From an uncultured Piscirickettsiaceae bacterium (lineage in GTDB: Bacteria; Pseudomonadota; Gammaproteobacteria; GCF-002020875), in contig CAZKCT010000004.1 in the NCBI GenBank assembly GCA_964551545.1, positions 2,569 to 58,708 of the forward strand: a DNA stretch of 56,140 nucleotides. The letters run 5' to 3'. Of the stretch, positions 12,747-28,812 are shown piece by piece. The translations under genes and the position numbers were made by a program. Within the stretch, counting starts at the first letter, position 1; every line of letters begins with the position of its first letter. The notes beneath the pieces are model-generated. The model ran no database searches, had not been told where the DNA came from, and was given only the letters and a program-made list of their open reading frames with translations.

Positions 12747-12757
12747 TGTGACTCTCC

Positions 12758-13918
12758 TTATGCTGCAGAGGCGACTGCCTTCTGGGCAGCACCGGTCAAT
12801 GTATCTTCGACGACGACGTTGAGACCACTGCTCTTCAACATCTCCATCCCCTCTGCGGCATTGGTCCCCTCCAGTCGTACGATGACAGGAATGGATACAC
12901 CGACCTCCTTGATGGCGGTCATGATGCCCTTTGCAATCAGATCACAACGGACGATGCCGCCGAAGATGTTGACCAGAATGGCACGTACCTTGTTGTCACT
13001 CAGAATTAGCTTGAAAGCGGCTGCAACGCGTTCAGCGGTAGTGCCGCCACCGACGTCGAGGAAGTTGGCGGGATCACCACCGTGCAGCTTGATCAGATCC
13101 ATGGTCGCCATCGCCAGACCGGCACCGTTCACCATGCAGCCGATATTGCCGTCGAGGGTGATGTAGTTAAGCTCGTGCTGGCTCGCCTCCAGCTCTGCTG
13201 CATCCTCCTGTGAGGGGTCGTGCATCTCCTGCAGCTTGGGGTGGCGATAGAGGGCGTTGTCGTCAATATTGATCTTTGCATCGAGTGCCAGCAGTTCACC
13301 GTCACCCGTGACGACCAGCGGGTTAATCTCCACCAGACTAAAGTCGTTGTGGGTGAAGAGGCCGTGCAGTCCTTTGAGAATCTTGGTTAGCATGCCGATC
13401 TGTTTCCCTTCCAGACCGAGACCGAAGGCTAGCTGACGGCACTGGTAGGGCTGTAGCCCGGCAGCAGGGTGGGCATGTACGGTGAGGATCTTCTCGGGAG
13501 ACTCAGCAGCCACCTGTTCGATATCCATACCGCCAGCAGCAGAGGCCATGTAGACGATCTGCTCCTTATCACGATCCACCAGTGCACCGAGGTAGAACTC
13601 GCTCTTGATATCCAGTGTCTGTTCAATCAGCACCTTGTGGATTGGTAGGGCACGGCCGTGGGTCTGGTGCGTACTCAGGCTCCCACCCAGCATCTCATCG
13701 ACGATGGCTGCTAGCTCGTCCCCCTCTTTGGTGATCTTGACACCGCCCGCCTTGCCGCGGCCACCTGCATGAACCTGCGCCTTGGCGACCCAGCCGTCAC
13801 TGTCGATCTTTCTGGCGCTGCTGGCGACCTCACTAGACTGTTCCACAGTGATGCCTTGGGGGATGGGGATACCCGCACGCTCAAAGAGCTGTTTGGATTG
13901 ATACTCGTGGAGGTTCAT
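12758..13918 (-). CDS. sucC: Succinyl-CoA synthetase beta subunit
   Basis: [33 protein letters not shown] and [10 protein letters not shown]. Confidence 0.96.
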
Positions 13919-14067: not shown

Positions 14068-17000
14068 CTAATGTGTGCTCTCTTTGTCCGTGTCTTGATA
14101 CTGATCTACTAGTGCAGAGAGGCGATCGGTAATACGACCGGTGACTTCGGACTCCAGTTGGTCGCGTAGTGTCTGCAGCTCCTGCTGGTGTGCCTGCTTG
14201 AGTGCATCGAGTTCGGCCTGATGGCTGGCGGCAACGCTTGCCTCGGCTGCTTGCTGCACTTGGCGGGTGAACGGTGTGACGGTTCCGGCCAGCTCCTGCA
14301 ACATCTGCCACTGCTCCAGTAACTGCCCTAGGCGGCGGGCGAATGAGGGGTCGATTGCCAGCTCAGTGCCATCTATATTACAGGTCGGTGTCTTGTTATT
14401 TTTCCCACGCTGATCGAGCTCGATCCACTGCTCCAGTGGCGTTGGCCCCTTGTGATTGTGCAGCGGGGTAAATAGTCCAGCAAAGCGTGACTCACCATGT
14501 GCCCATGCGGCAATGGAGAGGGTTTCAGTGGCGGCTTTCTCCAGGGTGATGCGAGTGCCAAAGACGCCAGCCTGATCCGGGTTGTAGCGGAACAGCGGGA
14601 AAGCGTGGCTCTCTACAGCGAGTCTTGCCTGGTGGACGGTTTGGTGGGTGTCGAAGCCGTGTCGTTGCGGGCTTGGGGCATGAATTCTCAATAGGGCAGG
14701 GCCACGATAGTGGAGTGCCTCCCGCATGGCATGGTTGAGATGGCCTGGGTCTGCGATGGAACTCTGTGCGACATAGGCATTACGTTGAGCAAGGGCAGAG
14801 AGCGCTAATTCGTTGCGGGCATCACTGTGGCGATGGCTGTTGCCGTGCAATCCCTCTTCGCCGGCAAAACCGAGGTCCATCTCGGCCAGTACGATCACCT
14901 TGATTGGTAGCTCACTGTTAAGTAGCCAAGTGAGTCCACCAGAAGCGGATGCCCCCAATGTCGTGTCATTGCCAATCAGTAGTAGAGGCGGACACTGTTG
15001 TTGCTCATCATCGCTCAAGTCACGCCAGATAAGGTGATCCAGCTCTTTGCGCTCTGCTTGTGGGCCGCCTTTGAGTAGGCTATTGGCTTGATGAATCAGG
15101 CGTTGGGTGGTGGTGGCCTGCTCTAGCTGTCCCTCCATCAATCCGGAGGCGAGAGCACCAATTTCGGCGGCGTTGCCGATGGTGACTGGAACCTGGAATG
15201 GATTAAGCGGGAAGTTTCCGGCCCAGGCTGCTGCAGTGCCTGATGCAAAGGCGAGACTATAGCGGGCGCGCCCCAGTGATTGGTCTCCGGAGGCGATTAG
15301 CTGTTGCTCTTGCTGGATTGCCTCAGCCAGCTCGATCCACTCCTTCAGCAGGAAGGCATCGACTCCCTCTCCTTCGATCTCGGCGGTCTTTTCGGCCAGT
15401 GTGGTGAGGGTGAGATTGCGGTTGGAGAGCTCTCCCAGCCCTTCGGCCAAGGCAGCGAGATCATCAATATGGGAGGCGACCGCCAACTGTTCACGAATGC
15501 CCTCCATCAGTCGCTGATAGAGCCCTTCCAGTGTCTGTAACTGCTGGTGTACCAGCGGCTGTTGGCGATATTCGGTAATTCCGAGCAGCTGACGCAGCAC
15601 CAGTTTTTCTCCGGAGCCTGGTTCTGCACGGTCTCCTCCAGCGATGGCCATTCCTGCATAACGGGAGAGCAGGGTGGCCTGGATTGCACCGATGCCTCCC
15701 TCATCGGAGAGTTCGATCAAACTGCTCGATGCGGTATCGGGTAGCTGCTCCCAGGTACGCCAGTTGCGGTAGTGAGTCTCTAGCAGCGTTGTGTTGGTGG
15801 TTGCAGGTTGTAGTGCAGCAGTTGCCTGCTTTTGCCGCTCGGCCTCTTGTTGGCAGAGTGTGGTACAGATTCCGCACCCTTTGCAGCTATCCGGGTTGAT
15901 GACCAGTGTCAGCAGTTCCCCTGCCTGCGCCTTACTGCGCTCATGGGTATTGAAAAGCTTTTCGGTCAGTACCAGTGGCATGGTACCGAGGTTTTCGCCC
16001 AACTGTTCGATGGCGGCATCAGCTGCCGCACGTCGGTCGGCAGCGAGCGGTGCTTGTTCCATCAGGATCTTCCACCCTTCCTGAATCAAGATGTTGCTAT
16101 CACCACTCTCTGTGATGGTGCTCAATACCTTGGTTAGGTTGGAGAGGTGGGGGCGTAGCGCATCGGCGCCGCCCATTCGCATCCCCGCCTCCAGCAGTTG
16201 CGTTGGTGTGAGGGCAGTGGCACCAATGGCGCTGTCGGGACAGTAGCTCCAGCAGTCACCGCAGCCGCTGCAGGATTGTGGATCGAGCTCAGGAAGCAGT
16301 GTCGCCTGTGAGGTGTGGCTGTTAAAGGTAGAGGAGAGAGGAGGGATATGGCCGGTTGCCAGGTAGGGATCAACCCCCTGCTGGGCCTCCATTCCATCGC
16401 GGTAGAGGACACCATTCTGATCCCAGAAGCGGGAGAGGCTGTGGTACCCCTGTGTGTTGCCCGCTTCGCCTTGTGTCAGATGGCGCACAGCCATCGGTGT
16501 CTGTGGCGCAGTGGCGCTCTCTATGGACTGTTCTGGAAGCGGTTTTGGCGAGAGTGGCTCGAGTGCACTCTGGAATCGCTCTTTCAGTTCATTGGGATGA
16601 TAGTTGTCGACCAGGCGATTCTCACGCAACTCAATGAAGGGCGTGGTCAGAATCAGGCTGAAGAAGTTGCCAATGCGTTGTGCGGTTGCTGCAGCGGCAT
16701 CTTCTAGGCTCTCTGTGTTGTAGTCAATCCAGTAGAGGGTGATGCCCAGTTTATGGAGTTGGGCCACGGTCTTGGTGGGTAGTTCGGCAAGATACTGTTC
16801 AGGGGCAAGTGTGCCTGGGTCAACCAGCAGGCGGGTACCGCTGTGCATGCGCGCCAGTGCTGGAATGCCTTGTTGTGGGGTGTGCTCAGTGAGCAGTGCA
16901 AGATCGATCGATTGTTCCGGATCAAGTGGGGCTGTCAGCGGGGTCGTGCTGTAGCTGAAGCAGTCGGTTTGGCTCTCCCCCCATGTCGACCAGTGGTTCT

Positions 17001-18531
17001 GTTGCTGGCTGCGCAGTTCACCCTCTATGGTCTGGTAGAGCTGTTGTGCGACCTGTGTGGAGAGTGTGCGAGCGGCGCCATTGGTGTGGAGAACCGCGAC
17101 GGTAACGGTTTCATCTCTTTGAGGGAGGGCGCTGCCCTTTCCGCGTAGATGGATCTTGTCGAGATCAGGGTAGTAGCGTTCCAGCAGGTCGTGCTGTGCC
17201 TGCTGCTTTGGGTTGCTATGGCGAGGCAGTGGGTCAATGCCCAGTCGGAGTGTGCTGGCGGGGCGAGTGGTGGGTATTTGGAATACTGCCTGCAGGTCGC
17301 GATTGTGCACGGGCAGGCCACCACTGCCATAGAGGACGGAGTGGACGCGGCAGCTAGGCGAGGCCAGGGCGGTGACTTGCTGATAGAGCGGTGGCTCGTC
17401 ATCGAAGAGCGGTTCGCTTTGATCCAGTACAGTGATCACATCCGCGCGCTGGATCAGCTTGCGCAGTGCGGGTGTGGGTGCTGGAGCAATTTGCTGGATA
17501 CCGACAATGGCCAGCTCGGAACCACGTTTCTGTTTGAGTTGCTGAATCAGTTGCTGGCAGCGTTCAGTGATAGCACCTTGGGTCACCACCAGGTGCCGAC
17601 TCTTGTACTCTCCTTGGTAGGAGAGCGGTCCATACTCTCGTCCAGTCAGCTCGCTAAATTGAGCAAAGGTCTGCTCCAGCAGTGGTGTAACCTGCTTGCC
17701 GAAAAATTGGGTGTGGGCAATTTCGCCCAATCCGAAGCTGTGTGCATCCTGATAAGCACCTTGCAGCGTGGGGTGGTCCAGGTTGTGCCAGCAGGGGATG
17801 CGGCGACGGCTCTCGCCAAACAGCATCTTCTGTGCTGAATCTTTCAGTGTGATGGTGTCACTGCAATTTCCCACCAGCTGCTGAATCAGTTGCGGAGAGG
17901 GAAGCTGCAATTTCTGCATGGAAAAGGCGGTCTCATCACCATCCATTGCCACGATCACAGGTACTAGTGTCTGTTCTGCCACTGCATGCGCAATCAGGGT
18001 AAAGTCGATTGCCTGCTGTCCATTCTGTGCAAAGAGCACGCATGCACCACTATTGCGGAGTTGATGCAGAGGCTGGTGGCTGCCTCCATGGCTCTCCCCT
18101 TGTAGGGGCTGGGCACGGTTGATGGTGTGGATCACCAGTGGCAGGTGTTGCCCGACAGCTCGTCGCACCAGGTCTTGTGCGGCGGCTAAATCGCTGGACC
18201 AGAGGCTGCAGGAGCTCCTTTTTCCGGCTAGCACCAGACCCATCGCGCCAGATAGAGCTGCGCGTGGACTCTCGCTTTCGAGTTGTAGTAACGGTTGGCC
18301 AAATAGATTGAGCTGCTGACGTTGTTGCTCACCACGCAAGGCAATGGCACCCTGTTCTGGCGGGAAACTGTCACCGGTTGCGGAGGCCTCGGAGAGGATC
18401 GCTTCTACGGTAGCGATCGCAACAGTACCCTCCAGCAGGGTGGTGATCCCATGCTCATCACTCTGTGGAGTGCGCTGCAGTCCTAGCAGTTGGCGATAGA
18501 GGCGGCTGGCGATTTCAGTGAAGCTGGGCAT
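14068..18531 (-). CDS. Large PFOR/NifJ-derived protein with degenerate catalytic motifs and two intact 4Fe-4S motifs
   Basis: Colinear with PFOR domains (NLFGQP, LPLVIHTINRA, AMDGDETAF, YGSGG, NAYVAQSS, FPLFRYNP). Keeps CSGCGDCWSYCP and CKGCGICTTLC. Lacks YPITP, CxxC-GE and GDG. Confidence 0.8.
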   Translation of the reverse strand: MPSFTEIASRLYRQLLGLQRTPQSDEHGITTLLEGTVAIATVEAILSEASATGDSFPPEQGAIALRGEQQRQQLNLFGQPLLQLESESPRAALSGAMGLVLAGKRSSCSLWSSDLAAAQDLVRRAVGQHLPLVIHTINRAQPLQGESHGGSHQPLHQLRNSGACVLFAQNGQQAIDFTLIAHAVAEQTLVPVIVAMDGDETAFSMQKLQLPSPQLIQQLVGNCSDTITLKDSAQKMLFGESRRRIPCWHNLDHPTLQGAYQDAHSFGLGEIAHTQFFGKQVTPLLEQTFAQFSELTGREYGPLSYQGEYKSRHLVVTQGAITERCQQLIQQLKQKRGSELAIVGIQQIAPAPTPALRKLIQRADVITVLDQSEPLFDDEPPLYQQVTALASPSCRVHSVLYGSGGLPVHNRDLQAVFQIPTTRPASTLRLGIDPLPRHSNPKQQAQHDLLERYYPDLDKIHLRGKGSALPQRDETVTVAVLHTNGAARTLSTQVAQQLYQTIEGELRSQQQNHWSTWGESQTDCFSYSTTPLTAPLDPEQSIDLALLTEHTPQQGIPALARMHSGTRLLVDPGTLAPEQYLAELPTKTVAQLHKLGITLYWIDYNTESLEDAAAATAQRIGNFFSLILTTPFIELRENRLVDNYHPNELKERFQSALEPLSPKPLPEQSIESATAPQTPMAVRHLTQGEAGNTQGYHSLSRFWDQNGVLYRDGMEAQQGVDPYLATGHIPPLSSTFNSHTSQATLLPELDPQSCSGCGDCWSYCPDSAIGATALTPTQLLEAGMRMGGADALRPHLSNLTKVLSTITESGDSNILIQEGWKILMEQAPLAADRRAAADAAIEQLGENLGTMPLVLTEKLFNTHERSKAQAGELLTLVINPDSCKGCGICTTLCQQEAERQKQATAALQPATTNTTLLETHYRNWRTWEQLPDTASSSLIELSDEGGIGAIQATLLSRYAGMAIAGGDRAEPGSGEKLVLRQLLGITEYRQQPLVHQQLQTLEGLYQRLMEGIREQLAVASHIDDLAALAEGLGELSNRNLTLTTLAEKTAEIEGEGVDAFLLKEWIELAEAIQQEQQLIASGDQSLGRARYSLAFASGTAAAWAGNFPLNPFQVPVTIGNAAEIGALASGLMEGQLEQATTTQRLIHQANSLLKGGPQAERKELDHLIWRDLSDDEQQQCPPLLLIGNDTTLGASASGGLTWLLNSELPIKVIVLAEMDLGFAGEEGLHGNSHRHSDARNELALSALAQRNAYVAQSSIADPGHLNHAMREALHYRGPALLRIHAPSPQRHGFDTHQTVHQARLAVESHAFPLFRYNPDQAGVFGTRITLEKAATETLSIAAWAHGESRFAGLFTPLHNHKGPTPLEQWIELDQRGKNNKTPTCNIDGTELAIDPSFARRLGQLLEQWQMLQELAGTVTPFTRQVQQAAEASVAASHQAELDALKQAHQQELQTLRDQLESEVTGRITDRLSALVDQYQDTDKESTH

Positions 18532-19378
18532 AACGTTTCTGACCCTCTGTCATGTTCCGGTTGTTTTCATTGAACTGCTCTCCATCGAGCCAGAGAATGG
18601 CTCCGGTGGGGCAGCGCCAGGTGGCTTTAGGATCAGCCTTGCTTCCGCTTTGATAGTTCAGCTCTGGAAGGTTGTTGACCATCTCGATCAGCCCTGTCGT
18701 GGCATCGGCAGCGCACTTGCCGCAGCCATCACAGGCGGAGCGGCAGAGCACGGTGATCGCCTCCCCCTCCAGTGGTGCATTGCACTGCACAAAGAGATGC
18801 TCATCCATCGAGTGAATCTGGAATAGGTCCTTGGGGCAGGCCACAACACAATCTTCACAGGCGGTGCACTTTTCGGTGTCCACGACGGGCAGGCCATTCG
18901 TGTTCATGTGGATGGCGTCAAAGGTACAGGCGATCTCGCAGTCGGCCAATCCGAGGCAACCCCAAGAGCAGCCTTTTCCTCCGCCCGATACCGTTGCCGC
19001 AGCGCGACAGCTCTCAAAGCCTTGGTATTCTGCAATCTGCCACGCCTCAGCCTTTCCGCCTGCGCAGTGGAGACGGGCTACTCGCTTGACCTGTTCGCCG
19101 GCATCAACACCCAAGAGATCAGCAATCTCCTCGATCTCCTCCTTGGGGGCAACGGTGCATTTGCTTGGCTCGATATTGCCAGCGATCAGCTCCTCGGCAA
19201 AGGCGCGGCATCCCGGCTCTCCACAAGCGCCGCAGTTGGTGCCGGGAAGCATTCCCTCGGTCTGGTCAATGCGCGGGTCTTCCTCCACCTTGAGCAGGCG
19301 ATAGGCCACGGCCAACACAACCCCAAAGAAGAGGCCAATGCCGGTCATGATGGCAGGGGAGGCGAGTGCGCTATTCAT
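18515..19378 (-). CDS. rnfB: RnfB/RsxB, membrane-anchored FeS subunit
   Basis: N-terminal TM helix, LPGTNCGACGEPGC, CSWGCLGLADCEIACTFDAI, CTACEDCVVACP and further Cys motifs. Confidence 0.92.
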   Translation of the reverse strand: MNSALASPAIMTGIGLFFGVVLAVAYRLLKVEEDPRIDQTEGMLPGTNCGACGEPGCRAFAEELIAGNIEPSKCTVAPKEEIEEIADLLGVDAGEQVKRVARLHCAGGKAEAWQIAEYQGFESCRAAATVSGGGKGCSWGCLGLADCEIACTFDAIHMNTNGLPVVDTEKCTACEDCVVACPKDLFQIHSMDEHLFVQCNAPLEGEAITVLCRSACDGCGKCAADATTGLIEMVNNLPELNYQSGSKADPKATWRCPTGAILWLDGEQFNENNRNMTEGQKRYAQLH

Positions 19379-19393: not shown

Positions 19394-21916
19394 CTACTGG
19401 TTGAATGGTGCGGCACGCTCAATCAGCTCATCCAGATCCGCTTCATCCTTGTTGAGCGGCATACCCGGATGGATGCAGCGTGAAGGACAGATCTCTGCCG
19501 CCTCGACCATCTGTGCATAGGTGCCGAGGTTAGGATCAGTGATGTAGGCCTGCTTATCTTCGTTGTAGACGAATAGCTGTGGGTTGATCGCCAGACAGTC
19601 GTTGCAGGTGGTGCAGAGCATAGAGTCGACCCATGGATCTTCACTAATCTCGATCACCGCCTCTGCTGCATCCTCCTCCTCTGTGGGTGCATTCGGCTCG
19701 GAGTCCACTTCACTGGACTCTTCCTGGTTCTCCTTAGTGACCGGAGCTGATGAGCTGGCAGGTGTCGCTGTGGAACTGAAACCTTGTGAGAGATCCATCT
19801 CCATCAACACTTGAGCCAGCTTGCCCATCACTTCCGTGGTGGCATTGCCTTGTAGTTCGGTGAGCTCTGCCTCATGGGCTGCATTGAGTTCGCTGATTTG
19901 GCTGTTGAGTTTGGCCTCTGCCAATAGGTTGGCTTCATTGAGGGACTGTTCAACGTGCGGGTTACGTACGCCAGAGAGCTCTTGCAGGGTATGCCAGTAG
20001 TTGAGGCGATCCTTGCAGGCGAGGATCAACTCACGGGAGACGACGACCTTGTGCAGCTCATTTTCCTCATTGATTGTCCAGACGAAGGGGATCAGTGAGA
20101 AGGTCTCCTCATCGCTCTGTCCAAGATAATCGGCAATGGGGATCAGACTGTTGGAGTCAAAGCCAGCAGGAATCTGACGGAAATGATTACGCAGTTGTGG
20201 AATCAGAAGCGCATAGTCAGCAAAGGTGAAGGCCAGCTCGGTATGCACCATCTCGCCGCTATCGTCACGGTAGCTGAAGGGGTGAATGGCCCAATCCTTT
20301 TCCGCTTGTGGATTGACACTGAAGTTCATACGCTCGGCAAAGGTATCCCCATGCTTCGGGTTGATGCGGAAGAAGGGGTGAACGCGCCCCTCCAGCGCTG
20401 CACCGGAGACCATCCAGGGGTCCATCAGGAATTGCTTGCGGGTCTTGGTGACCGATTCCCCTACCAGGTGAGGATCAGCCTCTTGCAGAATGACCTCATC
20501 CTGCATGCCGGTATTGATGAGGTGAACACTGGTACGGGGGATCTCAGTGGCCTCCAGGAAGCCCTGCATCAGGTGCTGGTAGCGTGCCGCAGAGGTCTGG
20601 CTAACGTAGCACTGACGATGCGCAGTGGCGAGGTAACCTAGCTCCAGACGGAAATCCTGGAATGGGTGCTCGTCACTGGCGGCGGGGTTGCCATGCCCCT
20701 TAATTCGTGTGAGTACCTGCACAGGGCGACCAGAGTTGAGCAGTCTGGAGAAGGCGCTCATCCCATTGTCGGCAAGGCGCAGTGAAGACTCCAGCGCAAT
20801 GGTGGCCGGGATCAGTAGCAGCTCCTCTTCGGAGAAGGCCTCCCAGCCAAAATTGTCGAACCAGGGATCGTGGACTACTGAGTCATACTGGTTGTCGATC
20901 TCCAGTCGAGCGATACGACAGGCCGAGAAGAGCGTTGCCAGTTGGCCGGCCTGTTCATCAAACAGGATGGCAGCTCGGCTGCAGGGGTCTTCATCCGAAA
21001 TGGTTTCGAAGTGTTCCGGACTACGGGTCCAAGAGCCACTAAAATCTCCACTGTGGACGAACCGGACCTGAATAGAGGGCTGTTCAAATTGGTGAATGAC
21101 TGCTGTGGCCTGCTCAATCCGATTGAGTCGATCCTCTGACATTGGTACGGTTGCGGACTGTTTCGGTAGCAAGTCGGTGAGTCGGTCGGTATTGAAATGG
21201 GCGGCTTCGTTACCCATGCTGCGACTGACCGCTGTGGCATCGATCTCTCCTCGTTTGTGTCGTTCCACATCAAGCAGCTGGTCGAGTTGGCGTTGTAGGC
21301 CTTTTACCTCATCTTCAAAGGCATCCCAGCGGGCATGGAAGCGGCCATGCACCAGATGGATCATCAGATGAATGGTGGTGTAGCGGTCATAGGGGAGCAG
21401 TTCATCTTTGGGGTGAACGCCCTCTATCAGCTGGTCAAGGTCGGCCTGCAGGTTGGCACTGTTCTCTTCCGATAGGGTGAGATGCTCCAGCAGCGCACGG
21501 TTAGACTTTTCGACAATTGGGCGCAGTAATTGTGGCCCCTCTAACGCTTCGATCTCCTTGCGAATGGCATATTCCAGCCAATCCAGGTTGTCTTTGAGAA
21601 TACGTGCGCTGTTCTCGCCCGGGGCAAAGCTCTCGATATGCTCCTTGAGGAAGCTGGCAAGTGGCTCTGCATGGCGATCCTTGTACTGGGAGTGACGAGA
21701 GAAGAGGATCAGCGGATAGTCATAGCGGATCTTGGAGGCGTCACGAAACGGACTCAACAGTGCAGGCAGGTGCTCGCTGTTGATGGAGAGTGTCTCCCGC
21801 TCCACACTGGGATCTCCCAAATGGAAGTGGTGCAGGGTTCGCAAGATTGCCGCTTCAGCTTCACGATCCGGCTGTGTGGAGGCATGCAGGGTTGGTAGAG
21901 GAGGTGCGCTACTCAT
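19394..21916 (-). CDS. Uncharacterised protein with a degenerate PFOR C-terminal domain, coiled coil, acidic linker and C-terminal ferredoxin
   Basis: LLNSGRPVQVL, CYVSQTS, HPFFRINP and WHTLQELSGV mirror the C-terminus of 14068..18531. Ends in CTTCNDC...CPSRC. Confidence 0.75.
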   Translation of the reverse strand: MSSAPPLPTLHASTQPDREAEAAILRTLHHFHLGDPSVERETLSINSEHLPALLSPFRDASKIRYDYPLILFSRHSQYKDRHAEPLASFLKEHIESFAPGENSARILKDNLDWLEYAIRKEIEALEGPQLLRPIVEKSNRALLEHLTLSEENSANLQADLDQLIEGVHPKDELLPYDRYTTIHLMIHLVHGRFHARWDAFEDEVKGLQRQLDQLLDVERHKRGEIDATAVSRSMGNEAAHFNTDRLTDLLPKQSATVPMSEDRLNRIEQATAVIHQFEQPSIQVRFVHSGDFSGSWTRSPEHFETISDEDPCSRAAILFDEQAGQLATLFSACRIARLEIDNQYDSVVHDPWFDNFGWEAFSEEELLLIPATIALESSLRLADNGMSAFSRLLNSGRPVQVLTRIKGHGNPAASDEHPFQDFRLELGYLATAHRQCYVSQTSAARYQHLMQGFLEATEIPRTSVHLINTGMQDEVILQEADPHLVGESVTKTRKQFLMDPWMVSGAALEGRVHPFFRINPKHGDTFAERMNFSVNPQAEKDWAIHPFSYRDDSGEMVHTELAFTFADYALLIPQLRNHFRQIPAGFDSNSLIPIADYLGQSDEETFSLIPFVWTINEENELHKVVVSRELILACKDRLNYWHTLQELSGVRNPHVEQSLNEANLLAEAKLNSQISELNAAHEAELTELQGNATTEVMGKLAQVLMEMDLSQGFSSTATPASSSAPVTKENQEESSEVDSEPNAPTEEEDAAEAVIEISEDPWVDSMLCTTCNDCLAINPQLFVYNEDKQAYITDPNLGTYAQMVEAAEICPSRCIHPGMPLNKDEADLDELIERAAPFNQ

Positions 21917-21931
21917 CGTTGGTTCAACCCG

Positions 21932-22894
21932 TTAAATGGCAAAGGTGTCCAGCGCCTTGTTGGTCGCTGCAATTTTCTGCTCGTCGGTGGCGTCATGGCC
22001 GACACTGGAGAGCTCGTCATAGCAGGGACGAGACGCATCCTGGTAGAGCAGGCCGACGGGGATGATTCCCTTGTCGGTCTCGTCACGGGCAATCGCCATC
22101 GCTTCATTGAAGTCAGAGGGGTCGTGCTCGCGGGTTTCCGGGAAGAGGCGGTCGATGCCGGGAGCGACCGGAATACCATTTTCATGTTGTAACAGTAGTA
22201 GACGGGAGCTGTCTTCCTGCAGCTCCTTGGTGATGCTGTCACTGAAGACCGGGCAACGCTGGATGACGCGGACAAAGCTACTCCCTTTGTGGGCGTGTGC
22301 AGCCTTGATTGTCTCGTAGAGCAGGGGTGGATTCCAGTCAACTACCTGGGCCACAAAGGAGGCGTTGGTGATCGCCATGGTGACCGTGTTGGGGTTCATC
22401 ATATCAATCGATGCCCCCTCTGGATGGGTGTTGGTGGGGAACTCCAGTGGTGTGGTTGGAGAGGTCTGCTTCTTGGTCAGTCCGTAGATCTGATTATCGA
22501 AGACCAATACGGTCATATCCATGTTGTAGCGAACCGCATGGATCCAGTGACCGGCACCGATGGAGTAGCAGTCACCATCACCGGTAGCGACCCAGACATC
22601 CAGATCGGGGCGGCGGGATTTTACACCGCAGGCGAGTGGCAGCGCGCGACCATGGATGCCATGCAGGCCGTAGGTGGCCATATAGTGGGGCATACGGCTG
22701 GAGCAGCCGATGCCGGAGACAAAGACACTCTTTTCGGGAGGGAGCTGTGCATCACGCAATACGCGGTGGGCGGTTGCCAGGACGGCGTGGTCACCACAAC
22801 CGTCACACCAGCGCGCCACGTTACCCTCGTAGTCATCGATGGTGAAGTAGCGCTCCTGAATGTCGAGAGACCAATCTGCCTTAATTCCAAACAT
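21932..22894 (-). CDS. korB: 2-oxoacid (probably 2-oxoglutarate):ferredoxin oxidoreductase beta subunit
   Basis: WCDGCGDH, SGIGCSSR, HGRALP, TPP motif GDGD...NQIYGLTKKQTSPT and QRCP. Confidence 0.9.
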   Translation of the reverse strand: MFGIKADWSLDIQERYFTIDDYEGNVARWCDGCGDHAVLATAHRVLRDAQLPPEKSVFVSGIGCSSRMPHYMATYGLHGIHGRALPLACGVKSRRPDLDVWVATGDGDCYSIGAGHWIHAVRYNMDMTVLVFDNQIYGLTKKQTSPTTPLEFPTNTHPEGASIDMMNPNTVTMAITNASFVAQVVDWNPPLLYETIKAAHAHKGSSFVRVIQRCPVFSDSITKELQEDSSRLLLLQHENGIPVAPGIDRLFPETREHDPSDFNEAMAIARDETDKGIIPVGLLYQDASRPCYDELSSVGHDATDEQKIAATNKALDTFAI

Positions 22895-22897
22895 AAC

Positions 22898-24772
22898 TTA
22901 TTCTCCTGTCTCGCTGTCGGTCAGTTGATCCAGGCGCTCTTGCAGCGCCCCCTCAATCAGGTCCGGTTGTAGCGGGTGACCATAGACTACAGACCAGCAA
23001 TCGACATCGACCAGGGTCTGTACACGCAGTACGGTAGCGAGCTGGCCGTAGCGACGGTTCTCATCGGTGACCATCGGTGCGTTGGGATCATCGCTATAGT
23101 TGACCTCCACCGTAATCACCTTGTTGAAGCGGGAGAAGATCTCCTTCAATCCCGGTTCTAGAGGAGAGAGGAAGCGTAGATGGATGGTAGAGACCTTGTT
23201 GCCTTTCTCACGCAGGTTATCGACCGCTTCGGTGATCGCGCCCCAAGTAGAACCCCAGCCGATGACTAGCATATCACCAGACTCATCCCCATGAATCTTG
23301 GGTGGGGTGAGGGTGCTCTGCAGTGTGCCCAGCTTTCGGCTGCGCATGGTGTGGCTATACTGGTTTTCAGCGGACTCATAAGAGACCTTGCTGTGTTTGG
23401 TATGAGAGAGACCAGTCATGATGTACTCACCCTTCGGCATACCCGGAATCGGACGCTGTGAGAGGCCGGTGTTCTCGTCCCACTCAAAGGGGGCTACATT
23501 GGTATCCCATTCTGACTGATCCAGTGGCGGTGCCATCATCTCGCGGGTGACATCAGGGCGTGCCCACGGCTGTACGCCGGTTGCCAGATTGGCATCGGTC
23601 AATACAATGACTGGGCCACGGAAGGTTTCGGCCAGTTTACGTGCAGTGACCACCATGCTGAAACACTCGGCAATGGTGGCAGCTGCCATGATGATTTTTG
23701 GAGCATCGCCCGGCATACCGTACAGAGAGGAGAGCAGATCCGCCTGCTCAATCTTAGTAGGCAGACCGGTAGAGGGGCCGCCACGCTGTACGTCGACAAT
23801 CACCAGTGGGATCTCGGCCATCACTGCCAGCGCGATATTCTCGGTCTTCAGCGCCATGCCAGGACCAGAGGTGATGGTGCAGGCGGTCTTGCCCGCGTAC
23901 GAGGCACCAATCGCAAAGGAGATTGCGGCAATCTCATCTTCCGCTTGATGAATGAAACCACCGGCTTCAGGATAGATTTCTGCCAGATAGTGGGTGGCAG
24001 AGGTGGCCGGGGTGATCGGATACATCGAGACCAGCTCCATGCCCGAGGCGAGGACACCGAGTCCGACCGCCTGGTTTCCGTTGGTGACCACCATCTTCTG
24101 TTGTCCCATCTCTTCTGCAGGGGGGATGTCAAAGAAGTATTCGGGAAGCTGTTCTCCGGCAAAGGCGTAACCAGCATCAAATAGATTTTGGTTGCTGGTG
24201 ATGATCGCCTCCTTCTTGCCGGCAAAGGTGAGGGCGATCTCATTGCGACCCAACTCTTTGTCTCGGTTGTAGATGCGGCAGAGCATCCCGAGTACGAACA
24301 TGTTTTTGCCCTTGCGGGGATCTTTCACCACCTTCAGGCAGGCCTCATGAATCGGCAATTCGTGAACGACCAGGCCGTGGTCACGGAACTCCTTCACAGC
24401 TTTGGCGTACATTTGTTGGATTTCTTCGGAGGCATCCGTGGCCCAGCGGTTATCCAGCAATACTACAGAGCCCTTCTTGTAGGCGCCGTTGGCGATGCGA
24501 GAGTAGAGTACCTGCTCGTTAAAGGCGACGACGAGATCGCCCTCATTGCCGACATTGGTGATGTATTTGGAGCCGAGACGAATACGGATGCCGCTGGCAC
24601 CAGACGGGGTGCGAGCGGGCGGCTGAATCTCGGCCGGAATAATCTCTACCGTCCAGACGCCGTTATTCATCTTGGAGCTGATATTTCCGAAAGTCTGGCC
24701 GCACTTCTGTGCGCCTTCGCCGGAGTCGCTAACGATCTCGACGATGTGTTCCTGAATGGTTGTTGGACTCAA
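22898..24772 (-). CDS. korA: 2-oxoacid (probably 2-oxoglutarate):ferredoxin oxidoreductase alpha subunit (gamma-alpha fusion)
   Basis: DSGEGAQ, YPITPAT, QAEDEIAA, TSGPG and QRGGPSTGLPTK. Start placed at TTG 24772 after GAGGGA. Substrate is inferred. Confidence 0.9.
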   Translation of the reverse strand: MSPTTIQEHIVEIVSDSGEGAQKCGQTFGNISSKMNNGVWTVEIIPAEIQPPARTPSGASGIRIRLGSKYITNVGNEGDLVVAFNEQVLYSRIANGAYKKGSVVLLDNRWATDASEEIQQMYAKAVKEFRDHGLVVHELPIHEACLKVVKDPRKGKNMFVLGMLCRIYNRDKELGRNEIALTFAGKKEAIITSNQNLFDAGYAFAGEQLPEYFFDIPPAEEMGQQKMVVTNGNQAVGLGVLASGMELVSMYPITPATSATHYLAEIYPEAGGFIHQAEDEIAAISFAIGASYAGKTACTITSGPGMALKTENIALAVMAEIPLVIVDVQRGGPSTGLPTKIEQADLLSSLYGMPGDAPKIIMAAATIAECFSMVVTARKLAETFRGPVIVLTDANLATGVQPWARPDVTREMMAPPLDQSEWDTNVAPFEWDENTGLSQRPIPGMPKGEYIMTGLSHTKHSKVSYESAENQYSHTMRSRKLGTLQSTLTPPKIHGDESGDMLVIGWGSTWGAITEAVDNLREKGNKVSTIHLRFLSPLEPGLKEIFSRFNKVITVEVNYSDDPNAPMVTDENRRYGQLATVLRVQTLVDVDCWSVVYGHPLQPDLIEGALQERLDQLTDSETGE

Positions 24773-24941
24773 AACAGTTCCCTCGTAGAACAAAAATTCC
24801 TTGTGTAGCCTGAGGTTCAGGCGGGTAATGACAGCCCTTAATAATCGCACTATTTGTGCGTAGAAATCAAGTTTTAGGGGATTTTGTGCTCTTCAGATGC
24901 CTGCAAAATGCCCGAAGTTTTGCTGTTTTTTGTGGAGTTTA

Positions 24942-25025: not shown

Positions 25026-26303
25026 TTAGAAAAGTGGTTGCTCACTGTGCCGGAGTGGCTGTTCGTACTCCTCCATGAAGTGGTAGAGCGAGCTATCGAG
25101 TAGTTTCATGGCACCATCGAGTAGATGACAGCGGCCGCTGCCGGGCAGGATGCGAGTGAGGTTGATCAGGGTATCCAAGTCGGCTCGAGTGCCGTTGCCG
25201 CTATCGATTCGAGTCAGCAATTGGGAGGCGTAGTGGGTGCCGGTTTTACAGGAGGGGCACTGACCACAAGATGCCGTGGCAAAGAAAGAGACATATTCGG
25301 TCACGCGGCGGACGATGCCTGTTCCCTCAGAGATGACGATCATGGCGCCAGTTCCCAGACTGGAGCGACGCTGCTGGACGGAGGTAAAGTCGAGCGGTAC
25401 ATCCAGATCTTTTGGGGTGAGAATGGTGTTCGATGGACCCCCAACAAAGACCGCTTTCAATTTGCGGTCCAGCAACATACCGCCGCCGTAGTTGTAGATG
25501 AGCTCAGAGAGCGGGGTACCCATTGGTAATTCGTAGGCGCCAGGATGGAGGACATCCCCACTGAGTGAAAAAATCTTGGTGCCGTGTGATGCCCCTTCCC
25601 CCTGATTGATGAACCACTCGGCGCCATTGCGCAGGATGTGGGAGACATTGGCGAGGGTCTCGGTGTTGTTGATCAGAGTGGGAGACTCAAACAGTCCGGA
25701 TTGTGCAGGATAAGGTGGTTTGCCGCGTGGGAAGGGGAAGTTGCCCTCAATTGACTCGATCGCTGCGGTCTCTTCGCCACCGACATAGAGGCCAGAGCTG
25801 GCCACAATATAGAACTCCAGTGGACGTCCCAGAATTCCCGAGACCTGGCTGATGTATTTAGTGTCATCCCACTGATTGACCGCCTCTCGCATCGCCTCCA
25901 TGGAGCCGGTCAAATGGGGATTGATATAGAAGACGATCTGATTAATGCCGCAGGCGAGTGCGGTGATGATGGCCCCCTCAATCACCTGGTGCGGGGTCTC
26001 CTCCAGCAGAAGGCGATCCTTGAAGGTGCCGGGTTCATCCTCGTTGCCATTGCAGATCAGGTATTTGTCCTGATTGTTGGGCTCGTTGGCAACAAACTCC
26101 CATTTGATGTGCGTGGGGAATCCGCTGCCGCCGAGTCCAAGCAGCTGCGCCTCACGAATGGCGGGGAGGATTGTTGCAGGGTCGGTAATTGCCTGCTCCA
26201 GACCATCGCCGCCCACATCAATGAGCCAGGCATCAAGGTCTGCACCAAAGCGGCGGTCGGGATGGAGTAGCACCTGGTTGAGAAGAGAGGTGTCCGAACT
26301 CAT
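25026..26303 (-). CDS. NuoF/HoxF-like NADH-binding FMN/4Fe-4S subunit
   Basis: GLGGSGFPT, NEDEPGTFKDR, YVGGEETA, PRGKPPYPA, NNTETL and SCGQCPSC...C. Confidence 0.88.
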   Translation of the reverse strand: MSSDTSLLNQVLLHPDRRFGADLDAWLIDVGGDGLEQAITDPATILPAIREAQLLGLGGSGFPTHIKWEFVANEPNNQDKYLICNGNEDEPGTFKDRLLLEETPHQVIEGAIITALACGINQIVFYINPHLTGSMEAMREAVNQWDDTKYISQVSGILGRPLEFYIVASSGLYVGGEETAAIESIEGNFPFPRGKPPYPAQSGLFESPTLINNTETLANVSHILRNGAEWFINQGEGASHGTKIFSLSGDVLHPGAYELPMGTPLSELIYNYGGGMLLDRKLKAVFVGGPSNTILTPKDLDVPLDFTSVQQRRSSLGTGAMIVISEGTGIVRRVTEYVSFFATASCGQCPSCKTGTHYASQLLTRIDSGNGTRADLDTLINLTRILPGSGRCHLLDGAMKLLDSSLYHFMEEYEQPLRHSEQPLF

Positions 26304-27937
26304 GAGGAGCCGCTCCTGCGGTTGCGATGGAGTCCGGCATAGTCGGAGTCGAGATCAAATTTTGCGTACTCCGGGAAGAGAAGAGGACCTTCGTGGTCTA
26401 GTCCGAGCCCGGCAATGGTGATCTCCCGACGTAGTTGGTTAATATGTTCAATCGAGAGCTGTGTACGTCGTTTGGTTTTGCGTCGTTCCGCAGCGGTCAG
26501 ACCAGCGCGTCGTCCATAGCTGATGATCTCCAGCAGCGCATTGCCCATCAGTCGGTTCTTGCCGTGAATGCCGCCGGTGACCTCGCCGACACAGAGGAGG
26601 CCAGGAACCGAAGTTTCACACTGCTCATTAATAACGACCCCCCCGTTCTGATAGTGGAGGGTGGGGTAGATCAGCATCGGTTTTTGGGTCAGGTCGACCC
26701 CTGCTTTTTTGCCCAGATGCATCAGTTTTGGAAACCGTTTTTCGATAATTCCGGGGTGGCGTAGATTGAGGCCGGGTGTATCGAGCCAGACGCCAACCTG
26801 ATTGTCGTCAGTGACGATGCCACGCCCCTCCTGGCATTCACGAATGATGGATGCCGCAACAATATCGCGTGGCTGCAGCTCATCGACGAAGCGTTCTCCG
26901 TGGCCATTCAGTAGATAGGCGCCGTTGGAGCGGACCCCTTCGGTAATCAGTGTTCCAGCGAGGTGGTAGGGATGAGCCAGGCCGGTGGGGTGGTACTGAA
27001 AGCTGTCGAGGTCTCGCAGTTTTGTCCCCATGCGGTAGGCAAGTACCAGTCCATCTCCTGTGGCACCAAAGTGGTTGGAGGTGGGGAATTGGTTGAGATG
27101 CATTCGACCGATGCCGCCTGTGGCAAGGATGACCGACTTGGCATTGACCTGAATATATTTTCGATCTTTGAGGGAGGAGAGGACGGCGCCCGAGCAGCCA
27201 CCATGGTCATCTCCCAATAACTCTACGGTTGGGGAGTAGTTCCATACCTCGACCCCGCTGTTGTAGACTGTCTCGCGCAGGACACGCATCATCTCCAGTC
27301 CAGTGTAGTCCCGGTAGAAACAGATGCGCTCATTGCTGGTACCACCGGCACGACGGGTCAGTAGGTCTCCAAATTCGTCGAGATCAAACTGCATACCCTG
27401 CTGAATCAGCCAGCGTATGGTATCTGGGCCATCCAGTGCCAACTGCTCTACCAGACCGGGATCGGAGTGGTTGTGTCCCGCCTGGATGGTGTCGTTATAG
27501 TGAAGCTGGGGAGAGTCCCCTTTGTTGATGGAGGCCTGTATGCCCCCCTCGGCCATAATGGTGTTGCTGTCACCCAGACGCAGTTTGGTGGCCAGAATGA
27601 CACTTGCACCCTGTTGCTTTGCAATCAATGCGGCAGCGCAGCCAGCCCCACCGCCGCCGATGACCAGGACATCGGTGTTGACGGTGGCCGCTCCTGCGAG
27701 ATCGGACTCATTGATGCGCGAGTCAGACTGTAGCTGCTGTGCCAATTGGGTGTGACATGCGGCGCCGGCATTGGGACCGATCTCTAGATGAGTCAGAGAG
27801 GACTCAATATGGTCTGGGTGAAAGCGACTCAGCAGAATGTGGTTGTCCAGTGCTGGGTCGGGCAGGGGAAGTGTCTCATTGGGCTGATAGGATTCGAGCG
27901 CTTGCTGGTAAGCAGTACCCGGTTGGAGGTCGGTCAT
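26300..27937 (-). CDS. Soluble fumarate reductase-type flavoprotein (SdhA/FrdA/TfrA family, non-covalent FAD)
   Basis: GGGGAG; SNTIMAEGG (no covalent-FAD His); catalytic motifs QYHPTG, TEGVR, PRDIVA, HYQNGG and NRLMGN; no long C-terminal helical domain. Confidence 0.85.
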   Translation of the reverse strand: MTDLQPGTAYQQALESYQPNETLPLPDPALDNHILLSRFHPDHIESSLTHLEIGPNAGAACHTQLAQQLQSDSRINESDLAGAATVNTDVLVIGGGGAGCAAALIAKQQGASVILATKLRLGDSNTIMAEGGIQASINKGDSPQLHYNDTIQAGHNHSDPGLVEQLALDGPDTIRWLIQQGMQFDLDEFGDLLTRRAGGTSNERICFYRDYTGLEMMRVLRETVYNSGVEVWNYSPTVELLGDDHGGCSGAVLSSLKDRKYIQVNAKSVILATGGIGRMHLNQFPTSNHFGATGDGLVLAYRMGTKLRDLDSFQYHPTGLAHPYHLAGTLITEGVRSNGAYLLNGHGERFVDELQPRDIVAASIIRECQEGRGIVTDDNQVGVWLDTPGLNLRHPGIIEKRFPKLMHLGKKAGVDLTQKPMLIYPTLHYQNGGVVINEQCETSVPGLLCVGEVTGGIHGKNRLMGNALLEIISYGRRAGLTAAERRKTKRRTQLSIEHINQLRREITIAGLGLDHEGPLLFPEYAKFDLDSDYAGLHRNRRSGSS

Positions 27938-28569
27938 GGAGACTCCTCCTTGATAATGCTGAACCCACCCTTGCGGATCTTCTCTAGACGGTTGATCAGA
28001 TTGGAGGGGCGAGCGTGAAAGTAGGCTGTGACCCGGCGGGCAAAGAGGCCGACACGGTTAGGGGCGATCGATTCAGGACAGCCCGTCATGCAGAGGTCAC
28101 ACATGATGCACTCGATAAAGAGCTCTCCAGCCTCTTTGAAGCGTCCCTTGACGGCCAGCTCGACCCCTTTTTCGACATCAATTCCCTTGGGGCAGGCGGT
28201 GGTGCAGCCATGGCAGTGACGGCACTGTTGTGCCTCGGGGAATATGTTGTGGAATTCTGTCTGCACCTCCCAGGAGTTTGGAATCTGCTCCAGCTGGTAG
28301 CTATGCTGGGAGGGGGAGGGGAAGATCAGGAACATCACCTCCATGCCTTCCTCAACCAGTGTCTGGCACCCCATCTCCATGGAGACCTGCTGAGTGTCGG
28401 CACGGCGAACCAGGACACGACAAGAGCCACAAACACCTTCTAGGCAGCCAACCCCCTGAACGCGGGGATAACCGGCGTGCCACAACGCCTGAATGACAGA
28501 GAGCGTTGAAGGTACGGTGATCTGGTTGCCGTTAATGGTAACGGTGACTTCGGTTTTTTGGGCGCTCAT
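27934..28569 (-). CDS. FeS subunit (2Fe-2S plus 2x4Fe-4S) of the soluble fumarate reductase
   Basis: GCLEGVCGSC...C, CRHCHGCTTACP and CIMCDLCMTGCP. Start is MSAQKT at 28569; the longer ORF runs through the tRNA. Overlaps the flavoprotein start by 4 nt. Confidence 0.85.
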   Translation of the reverse strand: MSAQKTEVTVTINGNQITVPSTLSVIQALWHAGYPRVQGVGCLEGVCGSCRVLVRRADTQQVSMEMGCQTLVEEGMEVMFLIFPSPSQHSYQLEQIPNSWEVQTEFHNIFPEAQQCRHCHGCTTACPKGIDVEKGVELAVKGRFKEAGELFIECIMCDLCMTGCPESIAPNRVGLFARRVTAYFHARPSNLINRLEKIRKGGFSIIKEESP

Positions 28570-28619
28570 ACTGGGCAATTTGAGTGTCCTGAAATCGAAA
28601 AGGGGGGCGAATACTACCA

Positions 28620-28660
28620 TAAAAAAGCCGGTCTTCGCGTTGAGGCAAAGACCGGCTTTA
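28620..28660 (-). terminator. Terminator after tRNA-Glu
   Basis: Minus strand reads AAAGCCGGTCTT...AAGACCGGCTTTTTT. Confidence 0.8.
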
Positions 28661-28667
28661 GATCTGT

Positions 28668-28742
28668 TGGTACTCCCTAGGGGAATCGAACCCCTGTTAC
28701 CGGCGTGAGAGGCCAGCGTCCTAACCGCTAGACGAAGAGAGC
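28668..28742 (-). tRNA. tRNA-Glu (anticodon CTC)
   Basis: 75-nt cloverleaf GCTCTCTTCGTCTAGCGGTTAGGACGCTGGCCTCTCACGCCGGTAACAGGGGTTCGATTCCCCTAGGGAGTACCA; loop CT-CTC-AC; encoded CCA. Confidence 0.95.
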
Positions 28743-28812
28743 ATTTCAGGTTGTTCGCATTAACGAACGGGTGCGTATTCTGCCACGCCGGTAAAACAAG
28801 TACAATACGCGG

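Follow-up and report, generated by a model that had tools for sequence, protein, structure and literature searches.

The two-subunit 2-oxoacid:ferredoxin oxidoreductases (OFORs) are described, in the available portions of two accounts, as having one cluster, no domain V and no ferredoxin domain (PMC12337175, PMC13768988). The second of these, a 2026 review of the pyruvate:ferredoxin oxidoreductases (PFORs), contains in its available portions no form that lacks the cofactors or carries a tethered ferredoxin, and mentions Rnf only as a consumer of ferredoxin. A literature search, with most subscription journals and the supplements outside its reach, returned no account of the family described here, of a PFOR built into an rnf operon or of pseudo-PFORs in such operons; the only trace was a 'PFOR-like' gene of Endoriftia that, according to the available portion of PMC11636981, falls in expression together with the dimeric korAB as the reductive tricarboxylic acid (rTCA) cluster rises. 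Here we describe the gene of P0001, an open reading frame (ORF) of 840 amino acids with an ATG start at positions 19394-21916 on the minus strand of a 56,140-nucleotide stretch of DNA from an uncultured Piscirickettsiaceae bacterium (hereafter the window), and its partner P0002, a protein of 1487 amino acids encoded on the same strand (14068-18531). The sequence data indicate that P0001 is a real and conserved member of an uncharacterised family, in which a predicted pseudo-PFOR with a tethered ferredoxin is encoded within a korAB-rnf operon. On balance we favour the view that P0001, as a fixed part of that operon, serves as a scaffold and shuttle between KorAB and a dedicated Rnf, and that its probable task is to relay electrons between KorAB, the 2-oxoglutarate enzyme, and Rnf, the ion pump in the membrane. 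The firm part of the argument consists of homology, the losses of cofactor sites, the conservation of ferredoxin and tether, the gene order and the co-occurrence of the two families.

When the window's own genome was searched with P0001, a third relative emerged besides P0002: P0126, a PFOR of 1642 amino acids encoded on contig C27. P0126 contains the Pfam domains POR_N, PFOR_II, POR, TPP_enzyme_C and a C-terminal Fer4_13, matches the PFOR of Moorella (6cin; E 4e-79) and retains the GDG motif, the Mg loop, the Cys residues of the proximal cluster and both domain-V motifs; being full-length with all cofactor motifs, it therefore looks catalytic. Residues 143-838 of P0001 align with residues 983-1641 of P0126 (BLASTP; 27% identity over 744 alignment columns, E 2e-76). 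Similarly, columns 12-835 of A2, the family alignment of 138 relatives on which the structure model and the conservation counts are also based, align with P0126 704-1642 (hhalign; 783 columns, probability 100, E 3.2e-86). The latter span comprises domains IV, V and VI, the C-terminal domain and the ferredoxin, and since the alignments to P0126 cover only 704-1642, P0001 represents the back part of a long PFOR, without domains I-III (domain I being the Pyr and domain III the CoA-binding domain). The N-terminal ~330 residues, which the initial annotation had not recognised, turn out to be degenerate forms of PFOR domains IV and V and of the front half of domain VI.

The structure model is in line with this assignment. 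Foldseek searches with the AlphaFold2 model of P0001 returned the PFOR structure 6cin (E 7.7e-7), PFOR domain VI matches in general (E 7.7e-7 to 3e-4), the OFOR beta subunits 9bt4_C, 5exd_F and 6n2n_B and, for the terminal domain, ferredoxin I (1fxr; TM 0.84, root-mean-square deviation 1.8). Homology of domain VI to the PFOR/OFOR superfamily is thus found by BLASTP, hhalign and Foldseek. When the family profile was compared with solved structures at E <= 0.01, it found Desulfovibrio africanus ferredoxin I (1dax, E 2e-6) and otherwise only spurious designed helical repeats, and no PFOR; because the profile reached no solved PFOR, the link between P0001 and the PFORs is drawn through P0126.

What distinguishes P0001 from its intact relative is the loss of every catalytic cofactor site. 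In the alignment to P0126 the columns of the thiamine-diphosphate motif GDG read ESS in P0001, the Mg loop is gapped, and the four Cys positions of the proximal [4Fe-4S] cluster in domain VI are all occupied by other residues. The consensus of the 138 family sequences contains no GDG, nor is any Cys outside the ferredoxin conserved in more than 80% of these relatives. The first Cys of P0001 is C312; residues 1-311 are free of Cys, so that the ligands of the domain-V clusters are absent. A Pfam scan yielded no POR_N, POR or TPP_enzyme_C match, the only family found being Fer4_13 (residues 763-816, E 1.1e-8), and an NCBIfam scan yielded no match. Because the catalytic cofactor sites are lost across the relatives, we regard P0001 and P0002 as conserved pseudoenzymes; P0001 is thus predicted to be a non-catalytic ('pseudo') member of the PFOR lineage, consisting of domains IV-V-VI and the C-terminal domain of a long Rnf-associated PFOR. 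The proposed PFOR descent of both proteins holds, as both align to P0126 and both lack the catalytic cofactor sites.

The model of P0001 (mean predicted local distance difference test score (pLDDT) 90.7; predicted TM-score 0.81) divides the protein into six parts, all encoded on the minus strand. Residues 1-165 (21422..21916; hhalign, BLASTP) are the remnant of the PFOR linker domain IV and of the ferredoxin-like domain V, of which the second half is deleted; residues 50-68 weakly match P0126 762-780, just ahead of the first domain-V Cys motif (BLASTP). Being free of Cys, this part therefore binds no cluster. Residues 166-500 (20417..21421; BLASTP, Foldseek) form a degenerate domain VI, normally the thiamine-diphosphate-binding fold, which keeps the helical insert that characterises the clade of long PFORs. 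A strand-rich C-terminal domain common to P0002 and P0126 follows (501-652; 19961..20416; alignments and model); it is the best-conserved part of the P0001 family, with (near-)invariant columns at R511, P514, N535, W542, F563, T564, A566, D567, P610 and W641. Residues 653-706 (19799..19960) are modelled as a single long helix. This segment had been described as a coiled coil, of which the helix stands; since inspection for heptads revealed no clear a/d pattern, we do not call it a coiled coil.

The most characteristic feature of the family is the arm that follows. Residues 707-753 (19658..19798), where the pLDDT falls below 50, are a disordered acidic tether rich in Ser, Thr, Ala, Pro and Glu, and residues 754-840 (19397..19657) a single-cluster ferredoxin with the motif CxxCxxC...CP (Pfam, profile, Foldseek), modelled confidently as a compact fold from residue 755 onward. 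In all 138 relatives a spacer separates helix and ferredoxin (residues 707-760 in P0001); its length ranges from 39 to 81 amino acids with a median of 51.5, its composition is dominated by Ala (22%), Glu (16%) and Pro (13%), and the net charge has a median of -11. Length and composition of this long flexible linker are thus conserved and its sequence is not, as is seen in carrier tethers. The ligands C768, C771, C774 and C810 are kept in 138/138 relatives and C814 in 120/138, and the domain shares 43% identity with the terminal ferredoxin of P0126. With the Fer4_13 ligand set and the fold of ferredoxin I, it is predicted to be a single-cluster carrier of the [4Fe-4S] type. A small terminal ferredoxin behind a linker had already been noticed in the initial annotation, and both the domain and the flexible, conserved nature of its tether (~47 disordered residues) are borne out. 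In one genome (G049, C1:2168648-2171105) the orthologue is split into a body of 755 amino acids and a separate ferredoxin ORF of 98 amino acids directly downstream, a natural untethered variant that shows the modularity of the arm.

P0002 (14068..18531) is a full-length relative without a ferredoxin tail. It aligns end to end with P0126 (24% identity, E 2e-128), and its C-terminal part is paralogous to that of P0001: a single BLASTP comparison aligned P0001 353-704 with P0002 1164-1471 (80/362 columns identical, 22%; 53 bits; E 8e-11), far beyond chance, and included the terminal helix of P0002, which is homologous to P0001 653-706. The paralogy of the C-terminal halves had been read from five pairs of short motifs; all five are present in both translations, and the pairwise alignment agrees with it. 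P0002 is a pseudoenzyme of a different kind. The eight Cys residues of the domain-V clusters (C754, C757, C760, C764, C883, C886, C889 and C893) are invariant in 38/38 sequences of alignment A3, in which E970 and S1287 invariantly occupy two of the former proximal-Cys positions. All of the 46 P0002-type sequences share a deletion of the Mg loop, and the GDG motif and the proximal Cys are absent from every listed variant. Likewise, among 26 further orthologues from metagenomes, a distant group included, 25 have both domain-V motifs and none has GDG or the four proximal Cys. By these sequences, P0002 appears to be a full-length pseudo-PFOR that keeps only the two clusters of domain V. Glu in domain I of PFOR activates the cofactor; at the aligned position the listed P0002 variants keep Glu or Asp, except one variant (2 sequences). 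In two genomes of the window's genus (G234, C17:7556-11365; G384, C23:31213-35055) the orthologous ORFs are shorter (1276 and 1292 amino acids) and match P0002 only at residues 1-483 and ~667-1483, so that the greater part of the domain III region has apparently been lost. A complex prediction with P0002 1085-1487 and P0001 300-712 scored 0.25 (mark 0.32), which bears neither way on binding.

The genomic context connects the two pseudo-PFORs with KorAB and with Rnf. The P0001 family was found in 314 species genomes; an all-against-all search of representatives gave 1914 hits at E <= 1e-3 and 854 clusters (50% identity) at E <= 1e-30, long PFORs included. Gene order was counted in 80 of the 314 loci found in species-representative genomes, and distances in those loci with enough flank (61, 68 and 57, respectively). 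The conserved order is korA-korB-P0001-rnfB'-pseudo-PFOR (P0002 type)-(sucCD)-rnfC'-rnfD'G'E'A'. Here, korB lies within 4 kb upstream of the P0001 homologue in 57/61 loci, a very strong link that agrees with the reported position of the korAB genes directly upstream of P0001, rnfB' within 3 kb downstream in 55/68 and a P0002-type gene within 6 kb downstream in 47/57. The gene rnfD follows downstream on the same strand in 38/80 loci, as do rnfG, rnfE and rnfA where the contig continues. The metagenome loci L128-L130 and L138, from a set selected for distant members of the family, show the same ten-gene order, and complete operons are also present in L154 and L164. No intact giant PFOR follows the P0001-type gene among the 71 readable partner ORFs (45 + 26). 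The P0001 gene is thus a member of an Rnf operon, and its product is not homologous to any Rnf subunit. This context was missing from the initial annotation, in which the module had no Rnf; since rnfB' lies between the two pseudo-PFOR genes and rnfC'DGEA after them, the other station that the arm visits is most likely Rnf.

In five further loci the rnf membrane genes are nearby on the opposite strand only, four of these being of the Thiomargarita type with the genes upstream of korA. The latter (L027, L036, L043 and L064; Thiomargarita/Parabeggiatoa-type) contain korAB and the P0001 homologue without rnfB' or a pseudo-PFOR downstream, have rnfD and rnfG upstream of korA on the opposite strand and, in the case of L027 and L064, encode a pseudo-PFOR elsewhere in the genome. 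More generally, where the P0001 locus has no adjacent partner, a full-length P0002 orthologue was present elsewhere in 5/5 genomes.

Co-occurrence profiling, which had been suggested as a check, associates the two families completely. Across 400 evenly sampled gammaproteobacterial genomes, full-length P0001 orthologues were found in 11, and P0002 orthologues (threshold E <= 1e-150) in exactly those 11. These 11 genomes fall in six families and therefore do not represent 11 independent events. By their names, the organisms in which the family occurs are micro-aerobic sulfur oxidisers; cultivable ones among them are Sedimenticola thiotaurini, Thiorhodococcus minor and Thiocystis violacea. A phylum-wide sample of 401 genomes, searched with profile A2, contained no P0001-type gene beyond that of the window's genome, only long PFORs.

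These long PFORs are themselves linked to Rnf. In the window's genome the intact P0126 lies between rnfB and rnfCDGEA (L005:3912-14211, contig C27), and rnf genes also flank the long PFOR in 6/6 further genomes of Gammaproteobacteria that were inspected: four have the order rnfB-PFOR-rnfCDGEA, in one rnfB is displaced to a position after rnfA, and in one the contig ends after the PFOR. The simplest history would be that an Rnf-bound PFOR with a tethered ferredoxin was duplicated, and that the korAB-linked copy lost its PFOR chemistry as KorAB became the catalytic part. Among the top hits of the family search are fused forms of 1120-1565 amino acids, one of them named as from Candidatus Riflebacteria, with degenerate domains I and II ahead of a P0001-like part; of the seven that were scanned, all end in Fer4_13, five contain a degenerate PFOR_II and one has POR_N in front. 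Locus L204 (10001-12421 and neighbours) encodes a fused P0001 type of 1379 amino acids that begins with a PFOR-like part and ends in a ferredoxin; rnfB, the gene of a second pseudo-PFOR (1449 amino acids) and rnfCDGEA come next. This arrangement may represent an ancestral state with two full-length paralogues. Extra ORFs in L031 (between korB and the homologue) and L068 (upstream) were considered as split-off PFOR N-termini and rejected, as BLASTP against P0126 gave E > 1 and Pfam nothing.

In the window the minus strand carries, in this order, the genes for an Fe-S protein, a TfrA-like flavoprotein and a NuoF-like protein, followed by korA, korB, P0001, rnfB', P0002, sucC, sucD and rnfC'. From korA through P0002 the intergenic gaps are 3 to 15 nucleotides, with a 17-nucleotide overlap of rnfB' and P0002; a gap of 149 nucleotides precedes sucC, and from there to rnfC' the gaps are 5 to 11 nucleotides. 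The product of korA (22898-24850) matches TIGR03710 with 497 bits, above the NCBIfam cut-off, and that of korB (21932-22894) TIGR02177 with 233 bits; the Pfam domains of the pair are POR, POR_N, PFOR_II, TPP_enzyme_C and PFO_beta_C, and the Pfam scan yielded no Fer4 domain in either. KorAB is accordingly annotated as a two-subunit 2-oxoacid:ferredoxin oxidoreductase and as the putative catalytic unit of the module. The rnfB' product (18515..19378; TIGR01944, 81.8 bits with a cut-off of 68.7; Pfam FeS and Fer4) is a membrane-anchored RnfB paralogue with an FeS domain and 4Fe-4S motifs, and rnfC' (10528-11868) matches TIGR01945 with 527 bits; RnfB' and RnfC' are 54% and 48% identical to the RnfB and RnfC encoded next to P0126. 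The genes sucC (12758-13918) and sucD (11874-12746), assigned by Pfam and NCBIfam, form an insertion between P0002 and rnfC' (11874-13918) that recurs in a minority of the 80 loci (sucC in 18, sucD in 17).

As assembled here, the operon breaks off behind rnfC'. The genes rnfD, rnfG, rnfE and rnfA form an orphan set on the 5-kb contig C79 (L103:698-3616), accompanied by neither rnfB nor rnfC. Its RnfD is 84-86% identical to the products of the rnfD genes that follow rnfC' in close relatives, compared with 49-50% for the copy on C27. The C79 set is thus orthologous to the genes that the operon is missing, and therefore the genome encodes the whole module, split between rnfC' and rnfD'. In total, the genome holds three sets of Rnf/Nqr-type membrane subunits.

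The three genes upstream of korA (25026-29010, minus strand; Pfam/NCBIfam) encode the Fe-S protein of 358 amino acids (2Fe-2S and 4Fe-4S motifs), the TfrA-like flavoprotein of 545 and the NuoF-like protein of 425. Together they may constitute a soluble fumarate reductase linked to reduced nicotinamide adenine dinucleotide (NADH), the match to the NADH:fumarate reductase family falling below the NCBIfam cut-off. The Fe-S ORF (27934-29010, minus strand, GTG start) overlaps the start of a pcnB-like poly(A) polymerase gene (28813-30231, plus strand) by ~200 nucleotides; since relatives match only from residues 69-155 onward, its start is probably later than listed. The listed start of P0001 itself may be off by some tens of residues, because an identical database entry has 803 amino acids. 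Near the P0001 homologues of the 80 loci, korB was found 72 times, rnfB' 60 times, the flavin adenine dinucleotide (FAD) gene of the trio 26 times, three of these being weak hits on the opposite strand, and the Fe-S gene 21 times; the count for NuoF is not separable from weak cross-hits to rnfC'. Elsewhere the 2.0-Mb genome encodes a canonical PFOR (ORF of 1188 amino acids), the E1 component of 2-oxoglutarate dehydrogenase and the large subunit of RuBisCO (loci C21:14087-14779, C10:16668-17093 and C2:34658-35584). A search for ATP-citrate lyase (PF16114) gave no match in this genome, as it gave none in the control genomes either. Contigs from two metatranscriptome libraries of one study match the operon at >=99% identity and cover 25/30 and 21/30 of its bins (bins without cover carry no meaning); two of them bridge the junction of korB and P0001 (21476-22652 and 21518-21964). 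They are only a hint of expression.

Taken as a whole, these data suggest the following mechanism, in which physical association, electron path and direction are what we infer. The pseudo-PFOR body of P0001, probably paired with P0002, would act as a scaffold that holds KorAB, which has a single cluster and itself lacks a ferredoxin domain, beside the cytoplasmic RnfB'/RnfC' arm of a dedicated Rnf. The tethered ferredoxin would swing between the clusters of RnfB' and that of KorB, possibly by way of the two domain-V clusters of P0002, and low-potential electrons would never leave the assembly. As for direction, NADH and the ion gradient would drive the reduction of the ferredoxin by Rnf, and the ferredoxin in turn the conversion of succinyl-CoA and CO2 to 2-oxoglutarate. 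We favour this reductive direction because the operon in the window carries sucCD and a NuoF/TfrA-like putative NADH:fumarate reductase, and because an E1 of 2-oxoglutarate dehydrogenase is encoded separately in the genome, along with RuBisCO and a canonical PFOR. Thermodynamically, the NuoF/TfrA-like set would work only as an NADH-linked fumarate reductase. A bolder version is that KorAB, P0001, P0002 and the dedicated Rnf (B'C'D'G'E'A') constitute a single membrane-bound supercomplex, in which succinyl-CoA carboxylation is driven by the gradient and NADH through an internal ferredoxin that is never released. It would be a hard-wired machine for the fixation of CO2 or the formation of 2-oxoglutarate, descended from a PFOR bound to Rnf, in which KorAB took the place of a catalytic core that had died, the two pseudoenzymes being left as wiring and scaffold. 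We put this extension forward tentatively, as a possibility that deserves consideration.

Several observations weigh against the proposed role. The pseudo-PFOR is not adjacent in 10/57 loci and korB is not nearby in 4/61, so that tight stoichiometric coupling is not universal at the level of gene order. The genes rnfDGEA are missing from the operon in the window's assembly. The two clusters kept by P0002 lead to an empty proximal site, for which the model does not account. The direction of electron flow, read from neighbouring genes only (sucCD in 17-18 of 80 loci, FAD in 26, Fe-S in 21), is its weakest part. The pairing of P0001 with P0002 and the delivery of electrons by the ferredoxin to KorAB, both put forward in the initial annotation, are likewise putative. 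The evidence of expression consists of contigs only, for which carry-over of DNA is possible. Finally, in Endoriftia the module is down when the rTCA genes are up, which suggests that it is not simply 'the rTCA enzyme'; the orthology of the 'PFOR-like' gene to P0001 or P0002 is not confirmed in the available portion of that account (PMC11636981).

The alternatives differ mainly in the role that they leave to Rnf and to the former active site. P0001 and P0002 could form a PFOR-like heterodimer descended from the PFOR homodimer, with an arm that serves KorAB directly and an Rnf that is inessential. The paralogous C-terminal halves with their terminal helix and the identical phyletic profile in the same 11/400 genomes would agree with this, and the fused relatives of 1120-1565 amino acids with degenerate domains I and II, as well as the fused form and second pseudo-PFOR of L204, fit two full-length paralogues that replaced a homodimer. 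However, P0001 lacks domains I-III, which build the core of the PFOR dimer, and a model without Rnf ignores most of an operon in which rnfB' is inserted in 55/68 loci and rnfC'DGEA follow; we therefore consider it unlikely that Rnf is dispensable. It is even harder to see the arm as serving another neighbour, i.e. the putative NADH:fumarate reductase or an NAD(P)-linked enzyme such as Nfn. The trio (FeS358-FAD545-NuoF425) does lie directly upstream of korA in the window, but among the 80 loci its FAD gene is found in 26 and its Fe-S gene in 21, against 72 for korB and 60 for rnfB', and fumarate reduction does not require a low-potential ferredoxin; such an assignment is highly improbable.

The fate of the active site allows two other readings. 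Family members are named in databases as ferredoxin, pyruvate decarboxylase, PFOR or 'putative pyruvate flavodoxin/ferredoxin oxidoreductase', and the second and last of these names, the fold retained at high model confidence and the Glu or Asp kept at the domain-I position in most listed P0002 variants could suggest that P0001 and P0002 together still work as a 2-oxoacid oxidoreductase, by means of an unconventional site for the cofactor or on another substrate. Against this stand the deletion of the Mg loop in 46 P0002-type sequences, the absence of GDG and of the four proximal Cys in 26 more, the invariant replacement of proximal Cys by E970 and S1287 in 38 sequences, the lack of any such motif and of domains I and III in P0001, and the presence of a genuine KorAB and two intact PFORs in the same genome, and we give residual catalysis very little credence. 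Pseudoenzymes often turn into regulators, and the vestigial pocket might be a ligand sensor, with P0001 as a regulatory or protective subunit that gates KorAB/Rnf or shields them from oxygen or redox stress and the ferredoxin as a redox sensor. The micro-aerobic life of the carriers would suit this role, as would the protection of the D. africanus PFOR against O2 by its domain VII, mentioned in the available portion of the review (PMC13768988). However, a long flexible tether that is conserved and a strict set of [4Fe-4S] ligands are more in keeping with a mobile carrier, and the conserved residues of the pocket region are mostly common to the active PFOR P0126, which suggests structural conservation instead of a new site. 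A sensor therefore seems to us distinctly improbable, and the scaffold and shuttle between KorAB and Rnf remains the reading that we prefer.

Ferredoxin-dependent carboxylations need electrons near -500 mV, and for micro-aerobic sulfur oxidisers and chemosynthetic symbionts the question arises of how these are supplied and protected; the organisms concerned include the symbionts of tubeworms, lucinids and nematodes, Thiomargarita and Sedimenticola. A conserved operon that links the genes of KorAB and Rnf by way of two dead relatives of PFOR, one of them with a built-in ferredoxin arm, suggests that the electrons are channelled directly and not through a pool of free ferredoxin. If so, the pseudo-PFORs would constitute a new class of accessory subunits for Rnf and for OFORs, and would illustrate clearly how a pseudoenzyme can be reused as redox wiring. 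It would also change the reading of 'PFOR' and 'OFOR' gene counts in genome surveys, one of which, in its available portion, counts seven OFORs in Endoriftia (PMC13147460).

Compared with the canonical homodimeric PFORs of Moorella thermoacetica (6CIN) and D. africanus (1B0P/7PLM), P0001 has the same fold of domain VI and the same order IV-V-VI, whereas its core lacks the thiamine-diphosphate and cluster sites and an extra C-terminal domain, helix and tethered ferredoxin have been added. From what the available portion of the review says, domain VII of the D. africanus enzyme is a different extension from these C-terminal parts (PMC13768988). In the alpha' beta' PFOR of Magnetococcus marinus (Mmc1_1741/1742) one polypeptide carries (IV)-V-VI, the span of P0001, according to the available portions of PMC13768988 and PMC12337175. 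That enzyme is active, in contrast, and has three clusters per catalytic unit; the likeness is drawn from the description only (PMC12337175, available portion). The neighbouring KorAB is of the type of the two-subunit 2-oxoglutarate:ferredoxin oxidoreductase of M. marinus (6N2N), and the KorB fold is among the Foldseek hits of P0001; the available portions of the two accounts describe the M. marinus enzyme with a free ferredoxin and mention neither a pseudo-PFOR nor an Rnf partner (PMC12337175, PMC13768988).

The arm itself resembles two systems. Residues 755-840 of P0001 share fold and ligand motif with D. africanus ferredoxin I (1DAX/1FXR, a single [4Fe-4S] cluster), which is free and soluble, whereas the P0001 domain is covalently tethered except for the separate ORF of G049. 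In the E2 cores of 2-oxoacid dehydrogenases, lipoyl domains on Ala/Pro-rich linkers act as swinging-arm carriers. The arm of P0001 is alike in its small carrier, its long low-complexity Ala/Pro/Glu linker, its scaffold body and its association with 2-oxoacid chemistry; it differs in that an Fe-S ferredoxin would move electrons, not acyl groups, and is known here from sequence and model. The closest likeness is to the long-form PFORs of ~1640-1720 amino acids of the P0126 type, which, as Rnf-associated PFORs with a tethered ferredoxin, are themselves uncharacterised. They share with P0001 the insert in domain VI, the C-terminal domain, the helix, the linker and the ferredoxin, and follow the same operon logic, with rnfB before and rnfC after; P0126 differs in that it is full-length and has kept all the cofactor sites, whereas P0001 has lost these sites together with domains I-III.

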